Below are positions 23,526 to 55,132 of a stretch of DNA of 64,000 nucleotides, in pieces. The position numbers were made by a program, and so were the translations under genes. Under the pieces are notes generated by a model. That model was not told the DNA's origin. It was given only the letters and a program-made list of their open reading frames with translations, and did no database searches. Every line of letters starts with the position of its first letter. The first letter of the stretch is position 1. Source of the DNA: a virus; IMG/VR virus record IMGVR_UViG_3300003323_000567, positions 32,001 through 96,000 of that record. The stretch is one strand, 5' to 3'.

Positions 23526-23542
23526 ATTAAATAAATTTATGT

Positions 23543-23635
23543 AGCGAGGGAAGGACTCGAACCTCCACGAGCTGTACCCAGAATTTAGCTCTCCACCGAG
23601 TTAGGATAGATGCTTTACCAATTTGCATACCTCGC
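23543..23635 (-). ncRNA. tRNA-like element with expanded anticodon arm
   Basis: GCGAGG...AATTGGTAAAGC D region, GGAGG TTCGAGT CCTTC T arm, CCTCGC; no 7-nt anticodon loop. Confidence 0.65.
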
Positions 23636-23650
23636 TGTGTGATAGATAAG

Positions 23651-31715: not shown

Positions 31716-32291
31716 TTAGGCTGATCTTCTATGATCAGTAATAAGAATATCCCTAAGGGACATGAGAGATGATATAGTGCCAAAAGATAATGGGTAATAA
31801 TCCCTTATATTAATCCCCACATCAATGCTCTTCCCCCAAGGGACTTTATCAAGGGTTCCATGAGAATGCCCATGTATGTTCCAAGACCCATGAGGGGAAT
31901 TTGGCCATGCATACATTCTGCAGTGATTCAGAATGATCTTTTGCCCATCTATAACAATGGTCAGCTGTTCTCCATGGTAGATACCACATCTATGATACAA
32001 CCTTATAGTGTCTTCATGATCATGGTTACCTTTGATGAAGTGCTTTATACCATTCATATCTCTGAGCATGAGCTCAGCCTCCTTTAGATCCCCAAGGGAT
32101 AGATCTCCTAAAAACCAGAGGTGGTCGTTTGGTCTGACAATCTTATTGTGACATTCCACAATATATTTGTCGTGATCCTCAATGGTCTCAAATGGCCTGT
32201 TGTCATATTTGAGCACATTATTGTGACCCCAATGGTAATCAGAAGCAAAATAGTGCTCTACGGTCTTAGACCGAGTGAATTTTAGGCTCAT
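31716..32291 (-). CDS. calcineurin-like metallophosphoesterase
   Basis: SDYH, LGD, GNHD, HGHSH. Confidence 0.9.
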   Translation of the reverse strand: MSLKFTRSKTVEHYFASDYHWGHNNVLKYDNRPFETIEDHDKYIVECHNKIVRPNDHLWFLGDLSLGDLKEAELMLRDMNGIKHFIKGNHDHEDTIRLYHRCGIYHGEQLTIVIDGQKIILNHCRMYAWPNSPHGSWNIHGHSHGTLDKVPWGKSIDVGINIRDYYPLSFGTISSLMSLRDILITDHRRSA

Positions 32292-49299: not shown

Positions 49300-50040
49300 T
49301 TTAATGTGGCATTTTGATCTGTAGCTCAACAGGTTATCATATCCCCCAAGGGGATGCTAGAGCTTGCACTCTCTAGCTAGTCTCATTGCAAGTGTATAAC
49401 CACTTTCAGTGCATTAGTCAAATAAATGACAAGTCTTGAGACTGGATGATTAGGTCACAACTCCGTGCCTTTTTATACTGCCATACAACAGTCTTATGCC
49501 ATATAATATATCATAATGATATCATATAACATAAAGTAATGAGAGCTGCAATACTGTACTTTATATAGTACTACAGCTCTCTATCATGTTGATAATCAAT
49601 GAGTTAGATCATAGTTTGTCTAGTCACATTGGCAACTAGCTCAGGGACTCATGCATTCTAGCTCATTGATAATCAAGGACTTATAAGCTTACGAAGTGAC
49701 CAATATTTCAGTTGGGATTAACGCTTAGCAATTATAAATCCTTGAAAATCAAGCAAGTGTGAGACATATTTAAATCTCATGTGCCCCAAAGGGTCATGGG
49801 GGGATACCCCCGACACTGCGATTTTACCAAGGGGTCAAGGGACGGTGTCCCCTTATTACTCATGTATATATAATAGATTTAGGGTAGCATGTATATGCGA
49901 AGTCAAAAAGTAAAACACTTGATATCACTGCATTTGGTTTGAGTTGCTCCCACGGTGAGATACAACTTTAGACCGTTAGTAAGGAGGGGGGGCTCTTATT
50001 CTATTACCTACAGTTCCCCCTGGGCATATATAGACCCATG
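49300..50040. other. non-coding strand-switch region (candidate origin or genome end)
   Basis: No ORF; divergent transcription; repeated TGAWAATCAA boxes, palindromes, G/C runs. Confidence 0.5.
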
Positions 50041-50062
50041 TTATACAGGTTTCTCTCACATA

Positions 50063-50094
50063 TTTGGAAATTAAAGGGGAACACATTACCTTTG
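50063..50094 (+). promoter_or_regulatory. Bacteroidota-type promoter
   Basis: TTTG-N20-TACCTTTG. Confidence 0.7.
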
Positions 50095-50109
50095 GAGAAA
50101 TATAAGGAC

Positions 50110-50514
50110 ATGAGTAAATTCACAGATGACTTTTTTGCCTTTCCTATTAAGGTGTATGATGGCTTCTCTCTGAAGAAGGCCATGGATGAAGAGGATAAGG
50201 TAGGGACTGAAGCTCCTGTGCCAATTGACTGGGTAGCTGGATGGGTGAGGATACCTGTAAAGGATTTACCTAAGATGATGTGGCATGAGGGCTTTTCCAG
50301 GGAGAGAAGTGTAAAGGATGTGGCTGAGGAAGGCTTTGATCTGACTATTGTTATTACTGATAGTTATGGAGAGTTTGTGAGTACATGGCCAAGGAAGAAG
50401 TTCGAAGCTAAGCTGGATGACTTCATGGCTAAGTATCAGACCAGGGCAAAGGACTATCTATCAAGCCCGAACCCCCATATTCTCGTTCAATCTATATCCC
50501 CTGAGGGACAATAG
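50110..50514 (+). CDS. hypothetical protein
   Basis: Start moved to MSKFTDD downstream of the promoter. Confidence 0.7.
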   Translation: MSKFTDDFFAFPIKVYDGFSLKKAMDEEDKVGTEAPVPIDWVAGWVRIPVKDLPKMMWHEGFSRERSVKDVAEEGFDLTIVITDSYGEFVSTWPRKKFEAKLDDFMAKYQTRAKDYLSSPNPHILVQSISPEGQ

Positions 50515-50524
50515 AGAAAATAAA

Positions 50525-50556
50525 TTTGGAGAATTGAAATCTTGGATCTATATTTG
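50525..50556 (+). promoter_or_regulatory. promoter of tRNA operon 1
   Basis: TTTG-N20-TATATTTG. Confidence 0.8.
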
Positions 50557-50583
50557 CAGGATAAAATCTAAACAAAGAAGAAA

Positions 50584-50664
50584 ATGTACTATTCAATAGT
50601 GGATAATGGGATCATGAGAGGCGCAGAGAAATCTGCTCCAGGGGTCTCTTTGTCTACTATGTAA
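50584..50664 (+). CDS. leader peptide 1 (MYYSIVDNGIMRGAEKSAPGVSLSTM)
   Basis: Between promoter and terminator; codons 5-16 match operon-1 tRNAs; 3' part complementary to the terminator. Confidence 0.8.
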   Translation: MYYSIVDNGIMRGAEKSAPGVSLSTM

Positions 50665-50686
50665 TTGATAAACAAGTAGTTAACCA

Positions 50687-50727
50687 AGATCCCTGGAGCA
50701 CCAAAGAGCTCTGGGGATTTTTGCTTT
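50687..50727 (+). terminator. attenuator terminator 1
   Basis: ATCCCTGGAGC/GCTCTGGGGAT + T-rich tail; antiterminator 50634-50647. Confidence 0.8.
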
Positions 50728-50729
50728 AT

Positions 50730-50800
50730 GCCCTCATAGCTTAATGGTAGAGCTCGAACCTTTTAAGTTTGAGATCCAAGTTCGATCCTTGGTGGGGGTA
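50730..50800 (+). tRNA. tRNA-Lys(UUU)
   Basis: Cloverleaf, loop CTTTTAA. Confidence 0.9.
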
Positions 50801-50809
50801 CAGAAATAT

Positions 50810-50880
50810 TCCCTTGTAGCTCTAAGGTAGAGTAGATGACTCTTAATCATCGGGCGAAGGTTCGATTCCTTCCAGGGGAA
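50810..50880 (+). tRNA. tRNA-Lys(CUU)
   Basis: Cloverleaf, loop CTCTTAA. Confidence 0.9.
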
Positions 50881-50881
50881 C

Positions 50882-51058
50882 ATGGCAACTAAAGATAAGA
50901 AAATCAGGAAGCTGAAGGACAGGATAGAGAAGATGGAAGCAGATATGTATAAAGAGTTGAGACAAAAGACATCTTCAACTGCAGAGATCAGCGTACATAA
51001 GTATCAAGCCAGATTGGCTCAAATGCATCTGGAGCTTCGGGAACTCGAAAAGAAATAG
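50882..51058 (+). CDS. small coiled-coil protein (58 aa)
   Basis: Manual translation MATKDKKIRKLKDRIEKMEAD...LEKK*. Confidence 0.6.
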   Translation: MATKDKKIRKLKDRIEKMEADMYKELRQKTSSTAEISVHKYQARLAQMHLELRELEKK

Positions 51059-51059
51059 T

Positions 51060-51266
51060 ATGAAGATTACGTTTCAAGAGATGGCTCTAAGGGGTAAAGA
51101 GATCTTGTCTAGGCAGGGGCCTGTTACATTAGAGCAGGCTAGGGAGCAAGTAGAAAGACTTAAGAAGAATTCAAAATGCTCCATAGCACAGGGGTTGAGT
51201 GCATCTGCCTTACAAGCAGTCGACCTTGGTTCGAGTCCAAGTGGAGCAACCCAAAAGGAGTTATAG
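51060..51266 (+). CDS. hypothetical protein reading through tRNA-Val
   Basis: Protein-like N-terminal ~39 aa; 3' part overlaps the tRNA. Confidence 0.4.
   Translation: MKITFQEMALRGKEILSRQGPVTLEQAREQVERLKKNSKCSIAQGLSASALQAVDLGSSPSGATQKEL
51177..51249 (+). tRNA. tRNA-Val(UAC)
   Basis: Loop CTTACAA. Confidence 0.88.
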
Positions 51267-51328
51267 CTCAATGAATAGAGCCTCTGCCTTCTAAGCAGAT
51301 TATCAAGGTTTGATTCCTTGTAACTCCT
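51257..51328 (+). tRNA. tRNA-Arg(UCU)
   Basis: Loop CTTCTAA. Confidence 0.9.
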
Positions 51329-51418
51329 CAGGTCTGTTTCCAGCTTCAGCGTGGAGTACAAAAGTTGGGGTTTTCAACTGCAGTGTATTACTTTCCATAA
51401 AGTGATCTCCTGCAGCCA

Positions 51419-51490
51419 GGACAGTTAGCTCAGAGGAAGAGCAAAGAGCTGTTAACTCTTAGGCCGGGATTTCGAAATTCCCACTGTCCT
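51419..51490 (+). tRNA. tRNA-Asn(GUU)
   Basis: Loop CTGTTAA. Confidence 0.9.
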
Positions 51491-51491
51491 C

Positions 51492-51779
51492 ATGAAAGAA
51501 TATCTGTTGAGTATAGGTTTTGAACAGAAGTTACCTTGGCAGTTTCACACTGATTCTTACATGGTAACTGAACTTGAAGAAGATTCCAACTCCATACCCC
51601 TCTGGAGCATCACAAATAAGAGGTATGATGAAAAAGTTTTCAGAGGAAGAATAAGGAGTGTTGAAGAGTTTAAGCAGATCTTTATGCTTGTGAAAGAGGA
51701 TTATGACTTGACACAGGATGAAATAAGTTGGGCAACAGCTATAAGAGGTAATGAAGAATTAAATAAGATTGCGGGGTAG
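51492..51779 (+). CDS. hypothetical protein
   Basis: 95-aa ORF between tRNAs. Confidence 0.65.
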   Translation: MKEYLLSIGFEQKLPWQFHTDSYMVTELEEDSNSIPLWSITNKRYDEKVFRGRIRSVEEFKQIFMLVKEDYDLTQDEISWATAIRGNEELNKIAG

Positions 51780-51843
51780 ACTGGAGAGGTGCCAGCTCAG
51801 TCTCATAAGCTGAATGACATGGGTTCGATTCCCATCCCCGCAA
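51770..51843 (+). tRNA. tRNA-Met(CAU)
   Basis: Loop CTCATAA; acceptor TGCGGGG/CCCCGCA. Confidence 0.85.
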
Positions 51844-51911
51844 CTAATCAGGTCTCCCACCCTGGTCCAGAGGGAGAGCAATGGGGCACTTGGGGACTGC
51901 CTACCTGATAT

Positions 51912-51982
51912 GCATCACAAGCATTGTGACGATGCTCCATCCTTCCAAGTTGGAGAGCAGGGTTTGATTCCCTGGTGGTGCT
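51912..51982 (+). tRNA. tRNA-Gly(UCC)
   Basis: Loop CTTCCAA, U73. Confidence 0.85.
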
Positions 51983-51983
51983 C

Positions 51984-52211
51984 ATGGATAAGAATGAAGT
52001 AAAGAAGAGATTATATAAGGAAAACCCAGGTGCAATCTTACTGGAGGTAAGAGCAGATGGTATGTTATACCAAGCTCTCTTTAAAGGGGATGATGGGTTA
52101 CCTGATATAAACCAAAAAGTAAAATTCCTTGTTCCCTTAGGGGAAATAGGAGAAGTAGTATGGAATAGGATAATGGATGCTAAATTATTAATAAGATGGT
52201 TACAAGATTAA
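51984..52211 (+). CDS. hypothetical protein
   Basis: MDKNEVKKRLYKENP.A...F.VP..E.G......MDAKLLIRW. Confidence 0.7.
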   Translation: MDKNEVKKRLYKENPGAILLEVRADGMLYQALFKGDDGLPDINQKVKFLVPLGEIGEVVWNRIMDAKLLIRWLQD

Positions 52212-52229
52212 AAGAAGGTGAGGAGCTAT

Positions 52230-52302
52230 GCTCCCATCGTCTAATCGGTTAGGACGTTACTCTTTCAAGGTAAAAACGAGGGATCATAACCCTCTGGGAG
52301 TA
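52230..52302 (+). tRNA. tRNA-Glu(UUC)
   Basis: Loop CTTTCAA; atypical T loop ATCATAA. Confidence 0.85.
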
Positions 52303-52313
52303 CAACATATTTA

Positions 52314-52395
52314 AGCTACATTGCGGACAAATGCTCTTAACTGAGCTGAGACCTGATAGGTTTCATACAGCAATTTGTCTGTCCGCCATGTGGCT
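52314..52395 (+). ncRNA. solitary permuted stem-ACAGCAA element
   Basis: AGCTACAT-GCGGACA...GAGACCT-GAT-AGGTTTC-AT-ACAGCAA...TGTCCGC-ATGTGGCT. Confidence 0.55.
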
Positions 52396-52400
52396 AGTTC

Positions 52401-52470
52401 GAGGGTGTGGTGTAATGGTTGCATAACATCTTGTCACGGTGCAGGTTGGGGTTCGAGCCCCCCACTCTCG
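52401..52470 (+). tRNA. tRNA-Asp(GUC)
   Basis: Loop TTGTCAC, G73. Confidence 0.85.
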
Positions 52471-52478
52471 ACTTAAAT

Positions 52479-52554
52479 CGGCTCATAGTTTAAGAGGTCA
52501 AAACTCCCGACTCATAATCGGATGTTCCCAGATCATGGCTGGGTGAGCCAACCA
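52479..52554 (+). tRNA. tRNA(CAU): Met/fMet or lysidine-type Ile
   Basis: Loop CTCATAA, C1xA72 mismatch, encoded CCA, atypical T loop ATCATGG. Confidence 0.8.
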
Positions 52555-52636
52555 ATCTTGAGGGTGCATGTCCCTCAGGGACAACTAGAGGATAAAGTGG
52601 GGGAGGGTAAGAACCCCCTCTCCCCCTTTATCAAAT

Positions 52637-52708
52637 TGCCTGGTAACTCAGTGGTAGAGTGCCTCTCTGATACGGAGTGAGTGGATAGTTCGATTCTATC
52701 TCAGGCAA
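52637..52708 (+). tRNA. tRNA-Ile(GAU)
   Basis: Loop CTGATAC. Confidence 0.85.
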
Positions 52709-52772
52709 CAGTAGGGACAGCTAAGTAACTGGAAGGGATGAAAGTTAGCCTTCGGGTTCTGTCCAAACACCA

Positions 52773-52846
52773 GGGGTTACATGTACCAAGGTTGGCGAGG
52801 GATCCTTGCAAGATCTCTGAGAAGAGTTCGATTCTCTTTAGCTCCA
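52773..52846 (+). tRNA. tRNA-Ala(UGC)
   Basis: Loop CTTGCAA, G3.U70, A73; atypical D arm. Confidence 0.8.
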
Positions 52847-52854
52847 CAGATTTA

Positions 52855-52886
52855 TTTGGAAATCTCAAAAAGACTTCCTACATTTG
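52855..52886 (+). promoter_or_regulatory. promoter of tRNA operon 2
   Basis: TTTG-N20-TACATTTG. Confidence 0.8.
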
Positions 52887-52893
52887 CAACATC

Positions 52894-52962
52894 ATGACAA
52901 AAGTATTATCATATTCCAGTCTATATCTCTTGATCAAAGATCGAGCTGGGATGGTTATATAG
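52894..52962 (+). CDS. leader peptide 2 (MTKVLSYSSLYLLIKDRAGMVI)
   Basis: Nine consecutive Leu/Ser/Tyr codons matching operon-2 tRNAs. Confidence 0.8.
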   Translation: MTKVLSYSSLYLLIKDRAGMVI

Positions 52963-52984
52963 TTTTTTTTGAAACCGTGGAGGT

Positions 52985-53019
52985 GCCCCAGCTTTTCTAG
53001 GCTGGGGTTTTTTGTTTTT
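52985..53019 (+). terminator. attenuator terminator 2
   Basis: GCCCCAGC/GCTGGGGT + T run; antiterminator 52943-52956. Confidence 0.85.
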
Positions 53020-53021
53020 AT

Positions 53022-53094
53022 ACCTTGGTAGCCCAACGGAAGAGGCAGTAGTCTTAGGAACTACACAGTGTGGGTTCGAATCCCACCCTCGGTA
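53022..53094 (+). tRNA. tRNA-Leu(UAG)
   Basis: Loop CTTAGGA; short variable arm; two acceptor mismatches. Confidence 0.8.
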
Positions 53095-53179
53095 CATGTT
53101 TATAATTTGTTTTGGAGAGTGTATGTGGCTAGTAGAGTTCAATGGACTGACTACTAATTGGTTATGCAGATTGGTATAA

Positions 53180-53254
53180 GTCCCTGTGATGTAATTAGGT
53201 AACCATACCAGACTTAAAATCTGGGTTTTGTAGGTTCAAGTCCTACCAGGGATA
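53180..53254 (+). tRNA. tRNA-Leu(UAA)
   Basis: Loop CTTAAAA. Confidence 0.88.
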
Positions 53255-53259
53255 CATAA

Positions 53260-53345
53260 GGAAGGTAGCACGGGATGCTCTGTAACTAGTCTTGAAAACT
53301 AGGCCAACGTGAAGAGCGTTGATGGTTGGACTCCATTACCTTCCT
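53260..53345 (+). tRNA. tRNA-Ser(UGA)
   Basis: Loop CTTGAAA, long variable arm. Confidence 0.82.
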
Positions 53346-53352
53346 CATATAA

Positions 53353-53436
53353 GGAGAGCAAACCTAAGAAGCCTTAGGAGCAGACTGCTAATCTGACTGT
53401 CCCTTAGGGGATGTGGATCGAGACCACTACTCTCCT
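53353..53436 (+). tRNA. tRNA-Ser(GCU)
   Basis: Loop CTGCTAA, long variable arm. Confidence 0.8.
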
Positions 53437-53441
53437 CATAT

Positions 53442-53512
53442 TGAGTGGATGCCAGGGCAGCAGGCAATGTCTGTAAAACATAGGCACTAGGGTTCGAGTC
53501 CCTACCACTCAA
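53442..53512 (+). tRNA. tRNA-Tyr(GUA)
   Basis: Loop CTGTAAA. Confidence 0.82.
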
Positions 53513-53518
53513 CTTTTA

Positions 53519-53550
53519 TTTGGTAGTCTCAAATAACTACCATATATTTG
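53519..53550 (+). promoter_or_regulatory. promoter of tRNA operon 3
   Basis: TTTG-N20-TATATTTG. Confidence 0.8.
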
Positions 53551-53554
53551 CATC

Positions 53555-53635
53555 ATGAATAAAGTATTTCGTCATACGTGGTTTACCTGTCAGCCTACTC
53601 AACCAGTGGGAAGGGGTGATGTCATGTATGATTAG
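53555..53635 (+). CDS. leader peptide 3 (MNKVFRHTWFTCQPTQPVGRGDVMYD)
   Basis: Codons 5-17 use only the amino acids of operon-3 tRNAs. Confidence 0.8.
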   Translation: MNKVFRHTWFTCQPTQPVGRGDVMYD

Positions 53636-53656
53636 AATATAAAGTTCTTGCATGCC

Positions 53657-53693
53657 AACCCCCTTTCTAACCAGATTGGGGGTTTTTCTTTTT
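53657..53693 (+). terminator. attenuator terminator 3
   Basis: AACCCCC/GGGGGTT + T run; antiterminator ~53608-53627. Confidence 0.8.
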
Positions 53694-53695
53694 AT

Positions 53696-53767
53696 CTAGT
53701 TGTAGCCTAGAGGCCAGGCACTTGCTTTGGGAGCAAGATGACGCTAGTTCGATCCTAGCCAGCTAGA
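53696..53767 (+). tRNA. tRNA-Pro(UGG)
   Basis: Loop TTTGGGA. Confidence 0.88.
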
Positions 53768-53772
53768 CATAC

Positions 53773-53846
53773 TCCAGATATGCTTTGATGGTGAAGCGCC
53801 TGTCTTGTAAACAGGAATAGAGAGTGTTCGAGTCACTCATCTGGAT
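53773..53846 (+). tRNA. tRNA-Thr(UGU)
   Basis: Loop CTTGTAA. Confidence 0.85.
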
Positions 53847-53851
53847 CATTT

Positions 53852-53924
53852 GGTGCTCAAGCAATTGTGGTCAATGCACCTGTCTGAAGAGCAGGCAAAC
53901 TCAGTTCGATCCTGAGGGGTACCA
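53852..53924 (+). tRNA. tRNA-Phe(GAA)
   Basis: Loop CTGAAGA. Confidence 0.85.
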
Positions 53925-53931
53925 CTTATAA

Positions 53932-54003
53932 TGCCCTTTAGCACAATGGTAGTGCGTGAGTCTTTGGTCCTCATTATGTAAGGTTCGATTCCTACAGGGG
54001 CAT
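53932..54003 (+). tRNA. tRNA-Gln(UUG)
   Basis: Loop CTTTGGT; acceptor TGCCCTT/AGGGGCA. Confidence 0.8.
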
Positions 54004-54005
54004 CT

Positions 54006-54078
54006 GTGGAGATACCAATTCGGTGAATGGGCTTGGCTGTGAACCAGGTAAGGCAGTTCGACTCTGCACTCCACCCCA
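54006..54078 (+). tRNA. tRNA-His(GUG)
   Basis: Loop CTGTGAA, C73, encoded CCA. Confidence 0.82.
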
Positions 54079-54149
54079 CTACCCTTCGTTCAAAGGAAGG
54101 ACTTGAAGCTACGAACTTCAGGATATAGGTTCGAATCCTATAGGGTAGT
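54079..54149 (+). tRNA. tRNA-Arg(ACG)
   Basis: Loop CTACGAA. Confidence 0.88.
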
Positions 54150-54154
54150 CATAC

Positions 54155-54223
54155 ATCTCTCAGGCCATGGGGGCCAAACAGTCTCCAAAACTGCAGGATA
54201 AGGTTCGATTCCTTAGAGGGGTG
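54155..54223 (+). tRNA. tRNA-Trp(CCA)
   Basis: Loop CTCCAAA, G73. Confidence 0.82.
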
Positions 54224-54230
54224 CCGATAA

Positions 54231-54304
54231 GGCCAATTCGCCAAGTGGCAAGGCCGAGGCTTGCAAACCCTCTATCACCTGTTCGATTCAGGTATTGGCC
54301 TCCA
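54231..54304 (+). tRNA. tRNA-Cys(GCA)
   Basis: Loop TTGCAAA, U73, encoded CCA. Confidence 0.85.
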
Positions 54305-54307
54305 GGA

Positions 54308-54331
54308 TCCTCTCTAATGAGAGGATTTTTG
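54308..54331 (+). terminator. terminator closing the tRNA region
   Basis: ATCCTCTC-TAAT-GAGAGGAT-TTTT. Confidence 0.8.
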
Positions 54332-54411
54332 CTTTTTATGGCATTAAGTCCCAGATACTTACATATTACTTCAAAAAAGGTCGTTAACTTTGTAAAAGAA
54401 AACCAAGCTAC

Positions 54412-54771
54412 ATGAAGGTAATTGTGCAGAAAATACGGAGAGAGGTAGCTTCTGACGTGGAAAAGGCAATAAGGTATTATTCTGTACTCCTTGCTCTGAA
54501 TCAAGTTAAGCTTCCACAGAAGCAGCTATATCTATTGGCATTCACTGCAGCCCGAGGGAGTATAACATCTCCTGCTGCAAGAAAGGAATTTGTAGAGATG
54601 TTTGATAGTTCCCTGGCATCTTTGGAGAACATGAAGCAAGAACTTGTTAAGTCTGGTTTTCTGGTCCAAACTGACATGAAGTATAGAGTTAATCCAAGCA
54701 TTGCTCTGGATTTCTCAAAGGATATACAATTACAGATAAACCTAAAGGGAAGTGAAAAAGACCCAAGATAG
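54412..54771 (+). CDS. putative winged-helix DNA-binding protein
   Basis: 119 aa, LVKSGFLV...YRVNP; preceded by TAACTTTG. Confidence 0.55.
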   Translation: MKVIVQKIRREVASDVEKAIRYYSVLLALNQVKLPQKQLYLLAFTAARGSITSPAARKEFVEMFDSSLASLENMKQELVKSGFLVQTDMKYRVNPSIALDFSKDIQLQINLKGSEKDPR

Positions 54772-55132
54772 TATAGCAACAGACAAGCTGAAAGCTGTAT
54801 TAGTTACAAGGACTGCTATAAAGACTCTTGTTCCAGAAGACATAGTAGAGAAAGTTATAATGTTCCAGTTCAAGGATGCAAGAGATGCAATGACAGAACA
54901 TGAGCAGGTGGAGATAACAGGCTTTGGAAAATTTATGACCTCCCCTAATAAGCTCAAAAACCAAATACACAAACTGGAAGAGACACTCAAAAGCATGGAG
55001 GCAAAGTTCAGAGATAGGCCTAATGAAATCCCGGCAAGAAGATTAGCAGTCTGGGAAAAGCTCACAGAAGCCATAGAAGTTGAACTTGCTTGCCTAAAAA
55101 CCAAAAAGGGGGGATATGAAAGTAAGCCTTAA
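54752..55132 (+). CDS. IHF/HU-like DNA-binding protein
   Basis: VEITGFGKF motif; location upstream of terminase as in crAss-like phages. Confidence 0.7.
   Translation: MKKTQDSIATDKLKAVLVTRTAIKTLVPEDIVEKVIMFQFKDARDAMTEHEQVEITGFGKFMTSPNKLKNQIHKLEETLKSMEAKFRDRPNEIPARRLAVWEKLTEAIEVELACLKTKKGGYESKP

Follow-up and report, generated by a model that had tools for sequence, protein, structure and literature searches.

What controls the transcription of a phage transfer RNA (tRNA) array that covers all 20 amino acids? tRNA genes are usually thought to be controlled at their promoters, by growth rate and stringent control, and to our knowledge the regulation of phage tRNA arrays is largely unknown. The question is raised here by an array on the + strand at positions 50525-54329 of a 64,000-nucleotide stretch of viral DNA (hereafter the window), which comprises positions 32,001 to 96,000 of the 126,034-bp IMG/VR virus record IMGVR_UViG_3300003323_000567. 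The array holds 25 tRNA genes in three blocks of 12, 5, and 8 genes. An initial annotation of this DNA had proposed that each block is preceded by the same kind of header, consisting of a promoter, a short open reading frame (ORF), and an intrinsic terminator, and that each header is a leader-peptide attenuator whose codons match the tRNAs downstream. The arrangement itself was borne out by ARAGORN (23 tRNAs, plus tRNA-Ala at a relaxed threshold), by alignment (one tRNA-Ser), and by motif and ORF scans. With a probability of about 0.78, we conclude that the headers would act as three attenuators of the trp/his type, each predicted to tie transcription of its tRNA block to the speed at which that block's own codons are decoded and to exert negative feedback on tRNA supply. 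The three header-plus-block units, each consisting of promoter, short ORF, terminator, and tRNA block, are as follows (distances in nucleotides, nt).

50525..50556, + strand: promoter 1, TTTG-N20-TATATTTG, a Bacteroidota-type motif; AUG 27 nt 3'
50584..50664, + strand: leader ORF 1, 26 codons, MYYS-IVDNGIMRGAEK-SAPGVSLSTM; control codons 5-16 at 50596-50631
50686..50729, + strand: terminator 1, called at 50686-50721; arms 50688-50699/50708-50719, then U tract; ends 1 nt 5' of tRNA-Lys
50730..52849, + strand: tRNA block 1, Lys(UUU), Lys(CUU), Val(UAC), Arg(UCU), Asn(GUU), Met(CAU), Gly(UCC), Glu(UUC), Asp(GUC), CAU, Ile(GAU), Ala(UGC)
~52774-52849, + strand: tRNA-Ala(UGC), with G3:U70; called by ARAGORN at a relaxed threshold only, and a weak tmRNA-type match in Rfam
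52855..52886, + strand: promoter 2, TTTG-N20-TACATTTG, a Bacteroidota-type motif; AUG 7 nt 3'
52894..52962, + strand: leader ORF 2, 22 codons, MTKV-LSYSSLYLL-IKDRAGMVI; control codons 5-13 at 52906-52932
52985..53021, + strand: terminator 2, arms 52985-52994/52999-53008, then U tract
53022..53513, + strand: tRNA block 2, Leu(UAG), Leu(UAA), Ser(UGA), Ser(GCU)-like, Tyr(GUA)
~53349-53440, + strand: atypical tRNA-Ser(GCU)-like gene, aligned to relatives
53519..53550, + strand: promoter 3, TTTG-N20-TATATTTG, a Bacteroidota-type motif; AUG 4 nt 3'
53555..53635, + strand: leader ORF 3, 26 codons, MNKV-FRHTWFTCQPTQP-VGRGDVMYD; control codons 5-17 at 53567-53605
53657..53695, + strand: terminator 3, arms 53657-53668/53673-53684, then U tract
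53696..54304, + strand: tRNA block 3, Pro(UGG), Thr(UGU), Phe(GAA), Gln(UUG), His(GUG), Arg(ACG), Trp(CCA), Cys(GCA)
54304..54340, + strand: final intrinsic terminator of the array, called at 54304-54329, with a U-rich tail of the same kind as in the attenuators

The primary-sigma promoter consensus of Bacteroidota is TTTG at -33 and TAnnTTTG at -7. In the window, TTTG-N20-TAnnTTTG was matched six times against 1.61 matches expected (six were reached in 1 of 100 shuffles), and three of the six matches are tRNA headers. Across the whole 126-kb genome, the strict form TTTG-N18-22-TAnnTTTG was found only seven times, three of these again being the tRNA headers; the tRNA blocks may be among the few units transcribed from host-type promoters. 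As the AUG lies only 7 nt from promoter 2, the message arising there would have almost no 5' leader, and the message from promoter 3, with its AUG only 4 nt away, is probably leaderless. A short ORF with its own start and stop codons was present between promoter and tRNAs in all three headers, in a frame that is kept in relatives; leader ORF 2 is the 3' part of a 74-codon frame that opens inside tRNA-Ala.

The evidence begins with the codons. Following their first four codons, leaders 1, 2, and 3 contain runs of 12, 9, and 13 codons that specify amino acids of their own block only, and these runs cover 10 of 10, 3 of 3, and 8 of 8 block amino acids, respectively. When the genome's own amino-acid frequencies were used, the chance of such a run with full coverage was 4.2e-5, 2.6e-6, and 1.9e-8 for leaders 1 to 3, and about 2e-18 for the three headers jointly (the product of the three single values). 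Leader runs and block contents were exactly as the initial annotation had given them, far beyond chance, and the three blocks' leaders jointly cover all 20 amino acids. Among the genome's 575 short ATG ORFs (18-35 codons), runs of 12 and 13 were found in the leaders only. Leader 2 falls outside this list, its frame extending upstream to an ATG in tRNA-Ala; for the Leu/Ser/Tyr set, the best run in any other short ORF of the genome was 6. In the other two reading frames, the match dropped to 7-8 of 12, 3 of 9, and 1-4 of 13 codons.

The match also extends to isoacceptors. The two Arg isoacceptors are sorted correctly, as had been claimed: the Arg codon is AGA in leader 1, whose block carries Arg(UCU), and CGT in leader 3, whose block carries Arg(ACG). 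In leader 2, Ser is encoded by both UCN and AGY codons and Leu by both CUN and UUR codons, and in leader 1 Ile is encoded by both ATA and ATC. Because leader 1 has ATA besides ATC, one of the two CAU tRNAs was suggested to be a lysidine-type Ile tRNA; the second CAU tRNA of block 1 is probably Ile2 of this type. 

As to the RNA, the attenuator hairpins have energies of -15 to -21 kcal/mol, are followed by U tracts, and end 1-14 nt before the first tRNA. In all three cases the minimum-energy fold of the full-length leader consisted of a hairpin between segments 1 and 2 plus the terminator (segments 3 and 4), with z-scores of -4.72, -3.85, and -4.35 for leaders 1 to 3, and none of 200 shuffles was as stable. 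Segment 1 lies within the control codons, and segment 2 lies at ~50634-50647 in leader 1, from ~52943 in leader 2, and from ~53607 in leader 3. The 5' arm of terminator 1 can alternatively pair with 50634-50647, and this cognate duplex has an energy of -25.5 kcal/mol. The claimed complementarity between the 3' end of each ORF and the 5' arm of its terminator was confirmed. In a further folding analysis, each transcript was cut before the 3' arm of the terminator and the ribosome footprint was masked codon by codon. For the three window leaders, the antiterminator (segments 2 and 3) formed in silico when the ribosome stood up to about codon 13-15, and the terminator arm was free when it stood further on, so that the mutually exclusive structures anticipated in the initial annotation were obtained for all of them. 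The control run stops where the ribosome would start covering segment 2. On these models, the window leaders have the classical four-segment attenuator layout. No terminator was found between block 1 and promoter 2 or between block 2 and promoter 3, and transcripts that read through one unit would thus meet the next attenuator.

If leader codons are selected to read the tRNAs of their own block, the two should change together among related phages. The window's TerL is distantly crAss-like, with ~26% identity to the TerLs of crAss-like phage and Cellulophaga phage and 35% identity to that of Leptolyngbya phage Lbo-JY46; a DNA search against a GenBank phage collection gave scattered tRNA matches only and no close relative. 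By using TerL and an alignment of 26 TerL relatives, 135 loci were collected from IMG/VR and metagenome contigs, among which were 15 distinct loci with arrays of at least 4 tRNAs near the terminase gene. (L078 was treated as L002 and L102 as L013, each pair being counted once on account of equal lengths, tRNA lists, and tblastn coordinates.) Headers of the same type were present at 8 of the 15 loci (L002, L004, L013, L030, L042, L051, L079, and L082), and three headers each were found in the cultured phages Leptolyngbya phage Lbo-JY46 and Cellulophaga phage phi4:1. The pooled set comprised 24 headers from 11 genomes or contigs.

Across these 24 headers, 276 of 381 control-region codons, which are those 5' of the antiterminator strand, belonged to the set of the downstream block, compared with 117.5 expected, and the same was true of 65 of 210 tail codons (control versus tail, Fisher p = 1.6e-22, the headers being related). 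Of 155 block amino acids, 149 occurred in the longest in-set run. Six genomes carry three headers each, and for 17 of their 18 leaders the best fit was the leader's own block, with a tie for the remaining one. The Arg codons in the runs fit the isoacceptor of the block in 14 of 14 instances, ten of them tabulated and four read from the Lbo-JY46 and phi4:1 sequences. Likewise, in each of the five tabulated Leu/Ser/Tyr leaders, Ser codons of the UCN and AGY types occur together, as do Leu codons of the CUN and UUR types (by eye, the same holds for leader 2 of Lbo-JY46), and four tabulated leaders of the block-1 type carry ATA together with ATY.

More telling are the cases in which a tRNA sits in a different block. 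In L051, whose TerL is 36% identical, Arg(ACG) is in block 1, and the run of leader 1, IIIVGRGAER, carries AGA as well as CGC. The same block is without Lys, Asn, and Asp tRNAs, and their codons are likewise missing from the run. Block 3 of L051 holds Asp and Asn tRNAs, and its leader 3 reads NNWHNTFTFTPNQPD, without R or C. Two tRNAs of this block, Asn and Gln, were missed by default ARAGORN and found afterwards; as they were found only after the leader called for them, the leader had predicted them. In Lbo-JY46, the Cys tRNA is in block 1, and Cys codons occur in leader 1 and not in leader 3. In L030, the run HPQPQH precedes a block of Pro, Gln, and His only. In phi4:1, a far more distant phage whose TerL is 26% identical, the tRNAs are split among blocks in quite another way, and the leaders follow suit: QRLHLQELEQP is found ahead of Pro, Glu, Gln, His, Leu, Leu, and Arg(ACG), TKTGITVIDKTKGARA ahead of Ala, Lys, Ile, Gly, CAU, Asp, Thr, Val, Arg(UCU), and CAU, and NYCTYNNSNWSFSY ahead of Tyr, Ser, Ser, Asn, Trp, Phe, and a Cys-like gene. 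On the sequences compared, and whatever the direction of change, that such placement differences between phages are mirrored in the leaders is the decisive point, and it is stronger evidence than the pooled p-values. Moreover, the Leu/Ser/Tyr leaders of different phages are permutations of one another (LSYSSLYLL, LLSYYSSSLLL, LLLSYYSSLSLL, and YLLSYLSSLSY). Residue order is scrambled while composition is kept, which argues for selection on codon identity rather than for a conserved peptide.

The RNA switch also co-varies. As the 3' arms of the terminators align poorly, we compared each ORF tail paired with its cognate terminator arm and with non-cognate arms. Over the 24 headers, the mean duplex energy was -15.76 kcal/mol for cognate and -9.74 kcal/mol (standard deviation 2.97) for non-cognate arms, the cognate arm ranked first in 13 of 24 headers, and none of 100,000 permutations reached the cognate mean; the cognate-versus-non-cognate result was the same in the first 18 headers. 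The stems of block-3-type terminators differ among relatives by changes on both strands. In the ribosome-mask model, 16 of 24 headers switched cleanly, at a position that lay -2 to +3 codons from where the run ends. Taken together, the modelled four-segment layout, the ribosome-dependent fold, and the co-variation both of tail with arm and of codons with tRNAs lend support to trp/his-type attenuation as the core reading of the initial annotation.

According to this reading, the headers would work in the following way. A host-type RNA polymerase would initiate at the Bacteroidota-type promoter, as the motif suggests, and a ribosome would load onto the short-leadered or leaderless message. It would then read 9-13 control codons, in which, as seen in the sequence, every downstream amino acid and every Arg, Ser, Leu, and Ile isoacceptor class is sampled. 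If decoding is prompt, folding predicts that the ribosome would cover segment 2 in the ORF tail, the terminator would form before the first tRNA, and transcription would end. If decoding of any control codon is slow, the ribosome would stay on segment 1, segment 2 would pair with the 5' arm of the terminator, and the polymerase would be expected to read through into the tRNAs. The new tRNAs, processed and charged by host enzymes, would quicken translation of the leader and so close a negative feedback loop.

Several observations weigh against this account. We infer leader translation, termination at these sites, and stall-dependent read-through from sequence and from modelled folds. A search for public sequencing runs over 50400-54400 returned none, nor any RNA data set. 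A clean switch was not obtained in 8 of the 24 headers, namely those of L042, Lbo_1, Lbo_3, and phi4:1 A, B, and C, together with L051_1 and L051_2, which were borderline, and the cognate duplexes of L004_2 (-6.9 kcal/mol), phi41_B (-7.3 kcal/mol), and Lbo_2 (-7.8 kcal/mol) are weak. When cut transcripts were folded without a ribosome, the antiterminator formed anyway in 15 of 21 headers; the untranslated default may thus be read-through, which is unlike textbook trp. Within each leader, most amino acids are represented by 1-3 codons; with so few, a change in one particular tRNA may register only faintly, and what the element senses may instead be the decoding times added together. Some codons had no matching tRNA found in the block (T, C, and I in L042; Tyr and AGY-Ser in leader 2 of Lbo-JY46), the run of L030 is preceded by six codons, NTLYFS, whose tRNAs were not found in the block, and Met is missing from the runs of L002_1 and L004_1 despite CAU tRNAs in their blocks. 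In addition, several tRNA identities, in the window and in relatives, were assigned by relaxed calls or by eye, and, since the headers are phylogenetically related, the pooled p-values overstate their independence.

Nor is the header found throughout related arrays. No terminator-plus-leader header was present at 7 of the 15 loci (L017, L096, L097, L106, L113, L132, and L133), and none of this kind was found in the crAss-like Kehishuvirus PhiCrAssBcn13, a Bacteroides phage (L139, OQ221548.1). These related arrays without headers indicate that the device is not obligatory. The prediction that leader codons co-vary with tRNA content in related phages held for the 24 headers of 11 genomes or contigs, with a few unmatched codons. 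In the seven arrays, the tRNAs are interleaved with protein genes and terminators are lacking. At L132, a single hairpin match was considered as a header terminator and was rejected because it lies inside a tRNA.

What would the attenuators respond to during infection? The initial annotation envisaged tRNA cleavage as one trigger. They could serve as an inducible counter-defence, in which a host anticodon nuclease or another tRNA-targeting defence would deplete a tRNA, the ribosome would stall, and only the block that replaces this tRNA would be switched on; we regard this as possible but doubtful. If so, the three leaders would jointly monitor the decoding of all 20 amino acids, and the way in which the tRNAs are grouped into blocks would itself belong to the design, a suggestion that we offer with the same reserve. 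The sequences fit plain feedback on the supply of charged tRNA and an anticodon-nuclease trigger equally well.

A different view, which we consider unlikely, is that the same hardware responds not to particular tRNAs but to translation capacity as a whole or to amino-acid starvation (charging), with the codon match merely ensuring that the phage's own tRNAs read the gauge. A stall would indeed report a missing charged tRNA whatever the cause, and with 1-3 codons per amino acid the real signal may be the summed transit over 9-17 codons; the antiterminators that formed ribosome-free in 15 of 21 cut transcripts would suit an element that is on unless translation is brisk. Such a gauge, however, would not need block-specific codon sets, Arg codons specific to the isoacceptor (14 of 14), or leaders that mirror tRNA placement, and such block-specific traits suggest that leaders have been selected to read the tRNAs of their own block.

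Still less probable is that the polarity is reversed, such that a stall favours termination, or that the leader acts on processing or stability of the tRNA precursor instead of on read-through. This proposal draws on the fact that all structural inference here is thermodynamic folding and that one-third of the headers (8 of 24) lack a clean switch. It is opposed by the other 16, in which a ribosome at the control codons yields the antiterminator and one at the tail leaves the terminator arm unpaired, by the co-variation of tail-arm complementarity, which an antiterminator predicts, and by the strong U-tract hairpins directly 5' of the first tRNA.

Two further proposals are very improbable. The ORFs are short, and databases leave them unannotated or hypothetical (as with phi4:1 gp075), but a set of chance frames or small functional peptides between plain promoter and terminator insulators, whose match to the tRNAs has no regulatory meaning, is at odds with a joint chance of ~2e-18, with the failure of the other-frame controls, and with a residue order that is scrambled while composition is kept. 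T-boxes are known tRNA-sensing elements that control terminator read-through, but against a T-box-like riboswitch, to which uncharged tRNA would bind directly and with no translation involved, stands the run of 9-17 different codons, which is no specifier loop and lies in a single conserved frame that has a start and a stop codon; moreover, an Rfam search of 50000-55000 at E <= 0.1 matched no T-box and no other leader family, those of Trp, His, Leu, and Thr included, and returned tRNA-clan matches and a weak plastid element only.

How do such attenuators compare with known systems? In enterobacteria, leader attenuators that respond to several amino acids control thr (Thr, Ile) and ilvGMEDA (Ile, Leu, Val), and those responding to a single one include trpL, hisL, leuL, and pheL. 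The phage headers resemble them in having a short ORF with control codons that is translated (in the phage, predicted to be), a four-segment RNA (in the phage, modelled), an intrinsic terminator, and an antiterminator that a stall is predicted to free. Whereas attenuators of amino-acid operons control biosynthetic enzymes, the phage headers would control 12, 5, and 8 tRNA genes and a few small ORFs, and whereas the leaders of the former contain tandem repeats of codons for one to three amino acids, the phage leaders sample 3-11 amino acids with mostly 1-3 codons each. The phage leaders also differ in their distinction between isoacceptors (AGA versus CGY), in their phage setting, in their Bacteroidota-type promoters, and in their nearly leaderless messages. 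In Escherichia coli, phenylalanyl-tRNA synthetase (pheST) is controlled by the pheM-leader attenuator, which is likewise a case of leader-peptide attenuation of a gene for the translation machinery; it senses one amino acid and controls one synthetase, whereas the product of the phage headers would be the very tRNA being sensed. T-boxes bind uncharged tRNA directly, without a ribosome, have a conserved stem I and T-box motifs, and control synthetase and amino-acid genes. In both T-boxes and the proposed attenuators, the state of a specific tRNA sets terminator versus antiterminator; T-box motifs were not found in the window headers in the Rfam search. A possible precedent, a leader or attenuator at E. 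coli tRNA-Phe genes, was not borne out at pheV, where the upstream region in MG1655 shows a promoter immediately ahead of the tRNA and lacks a leader ORF.

The closest published case that we found is the trn operon of Anabaena sp. PCC 7120, a long accessory tRNA array that is normally off and is turned on under impaired translation (PMC8421152). Induction by translational stress would be common to both; control of the Anabaena operon is described as residing in the promoter, by way of direct repeats and the TrcR repressor (PMC8421152, PMC10272220), as opposed to the attenuation proposed for the phage. In PMC8421152, the strings 'attenuat', 'leader', and 'terminator' occur 0 times. A full-text literature search, with supplementary files and papers of the 1980s outside its scope, gave no account of leader-peptide control of tRNA genes. 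What appears to be new, as read from the DNA, is that the target is tRNA genes, that the leader would serve as a barcode for as many as 11 amino acids and tell isoacceptors apart, and that the setting is a phage of Bacteroidota-type hosts; the mechanism, of the trp/his kind, is known.

In such an element, the quantity measured (the decoding of codons) and the product (the tRNA that decodes them) would be joined in one short sequence, which makes for a direct feedback loop, and the leader can be read as a barcode that predicts the tRNAs downstream. If the proposed mechanism is true, a phage could carry a full tRNA set without the cost of expressing it constantly. The headers would then be natural sensors of how well each charged tRNA is supplied, as well as compact synthetic-biology parts for Bacteroidota, and would bear on the arms race with tRNA-cleaving defences. 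As the device is also present in the cultured phages phi4:1 and Lbo-JY46, it can be tested at the bench now.

Two tRNA genes of the window array required particular care. Of the 24 tRNAs that ARAGORN called across the window, 23 lie on the + strand within 50730-54304. The Ser(GCU)-like gene at ~53349-53440 was not called by ARAGORN at -ps80 or by Rfam; it aligns with Ser(GCU) genes or gap sequences of four relatives, and the anticodon loop CTGCTAA is invariant (5 of 5). This gene and tRNA-Ala(UGC) are real, though atypical, tRNAs. A 96-nt tRNA-Val(AAC) was called by ARAGORN at 23541-23636 on the - strand, distant from the array, and may be a false or insert-bearing call. When the blocks were checked against the genetic code only, block 2 was exactly the bacterial class II tRNA set (Leu, Ser, and Tyr), block 1 consisted mostly of purine-first codon families, and block 3 mostly of pyrimidine-first families, Thr excepted. 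All nine residues of the leader 2 tail (IKDRAGMVI, 52933-52959) are block-1 amino acids, and leader 1 opens, after its M, with YYS (50587-50595), all block-2 amino acids. These matches to other blocks may be coincidental, since the block-1 set accounts for 58% of residues, or may reflect cross-talk.

Three small ORFs lie amid the tRNAs of block 1, where several spacers between genes are 60-100 nt long.

50882-51058: small ORF, 58 aa
51492-51779: small ORF, 95 aa
51975-52211: small ORF, 78 aa

Being interleaved in block 1, these ORFs would come under the control of attenuator 1. A search of PHROGs with eight neighbouring or interleaved small proteins gave no informative family.

Further observations were made on the related phages. 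PhiCrAssBcn13 resembles the window phage in having a cluster of ~24 tRNAs in a Bacteroidota phage with a TTTG/TAnnTTTG promoter in front. It differs in that this promoter lies ~25 nt before the first tRNA and in that the gaps are without a matching leader ORF or terminator. Inside its array of 24 tRNAs are genes annotated as putative DpsA and putative ferredoxin-thioredoxin reductase. For Lbo-JY46 (L136, PP438436.1), a cyanobacterial host is named in the record, yet Bacteroidota-type promoters stand at all three headers. For one of its tRNAs ARAGORN gave Cys(ACA), but Val(UAC) is the likelier identity, the anticodon loop CCUACAA having an unusual C33, and an additional class II tRNA lies far off, at 2501-2586 of the record. 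In phi4:1 (L137, NC_021788.1), leader B is contained in the annotated hypothetical protein gp075, and gp076, which overlaps tRNA-Ser, is probably spurious. Of two annotated pseudo-tRNAs of this phage, one looks like an Asn(GUU) gene whose variable arm is long, and the other is Cys(GCA)-like. As for TerL itself, longer matches were obtained at several loci (e.g., L012, L015, L048, and L104), and the relative P0090 has 1076 aa and contains Pfam domains PF14528 and PF14890, which we take to be of the intein or homing-endonuclease type.

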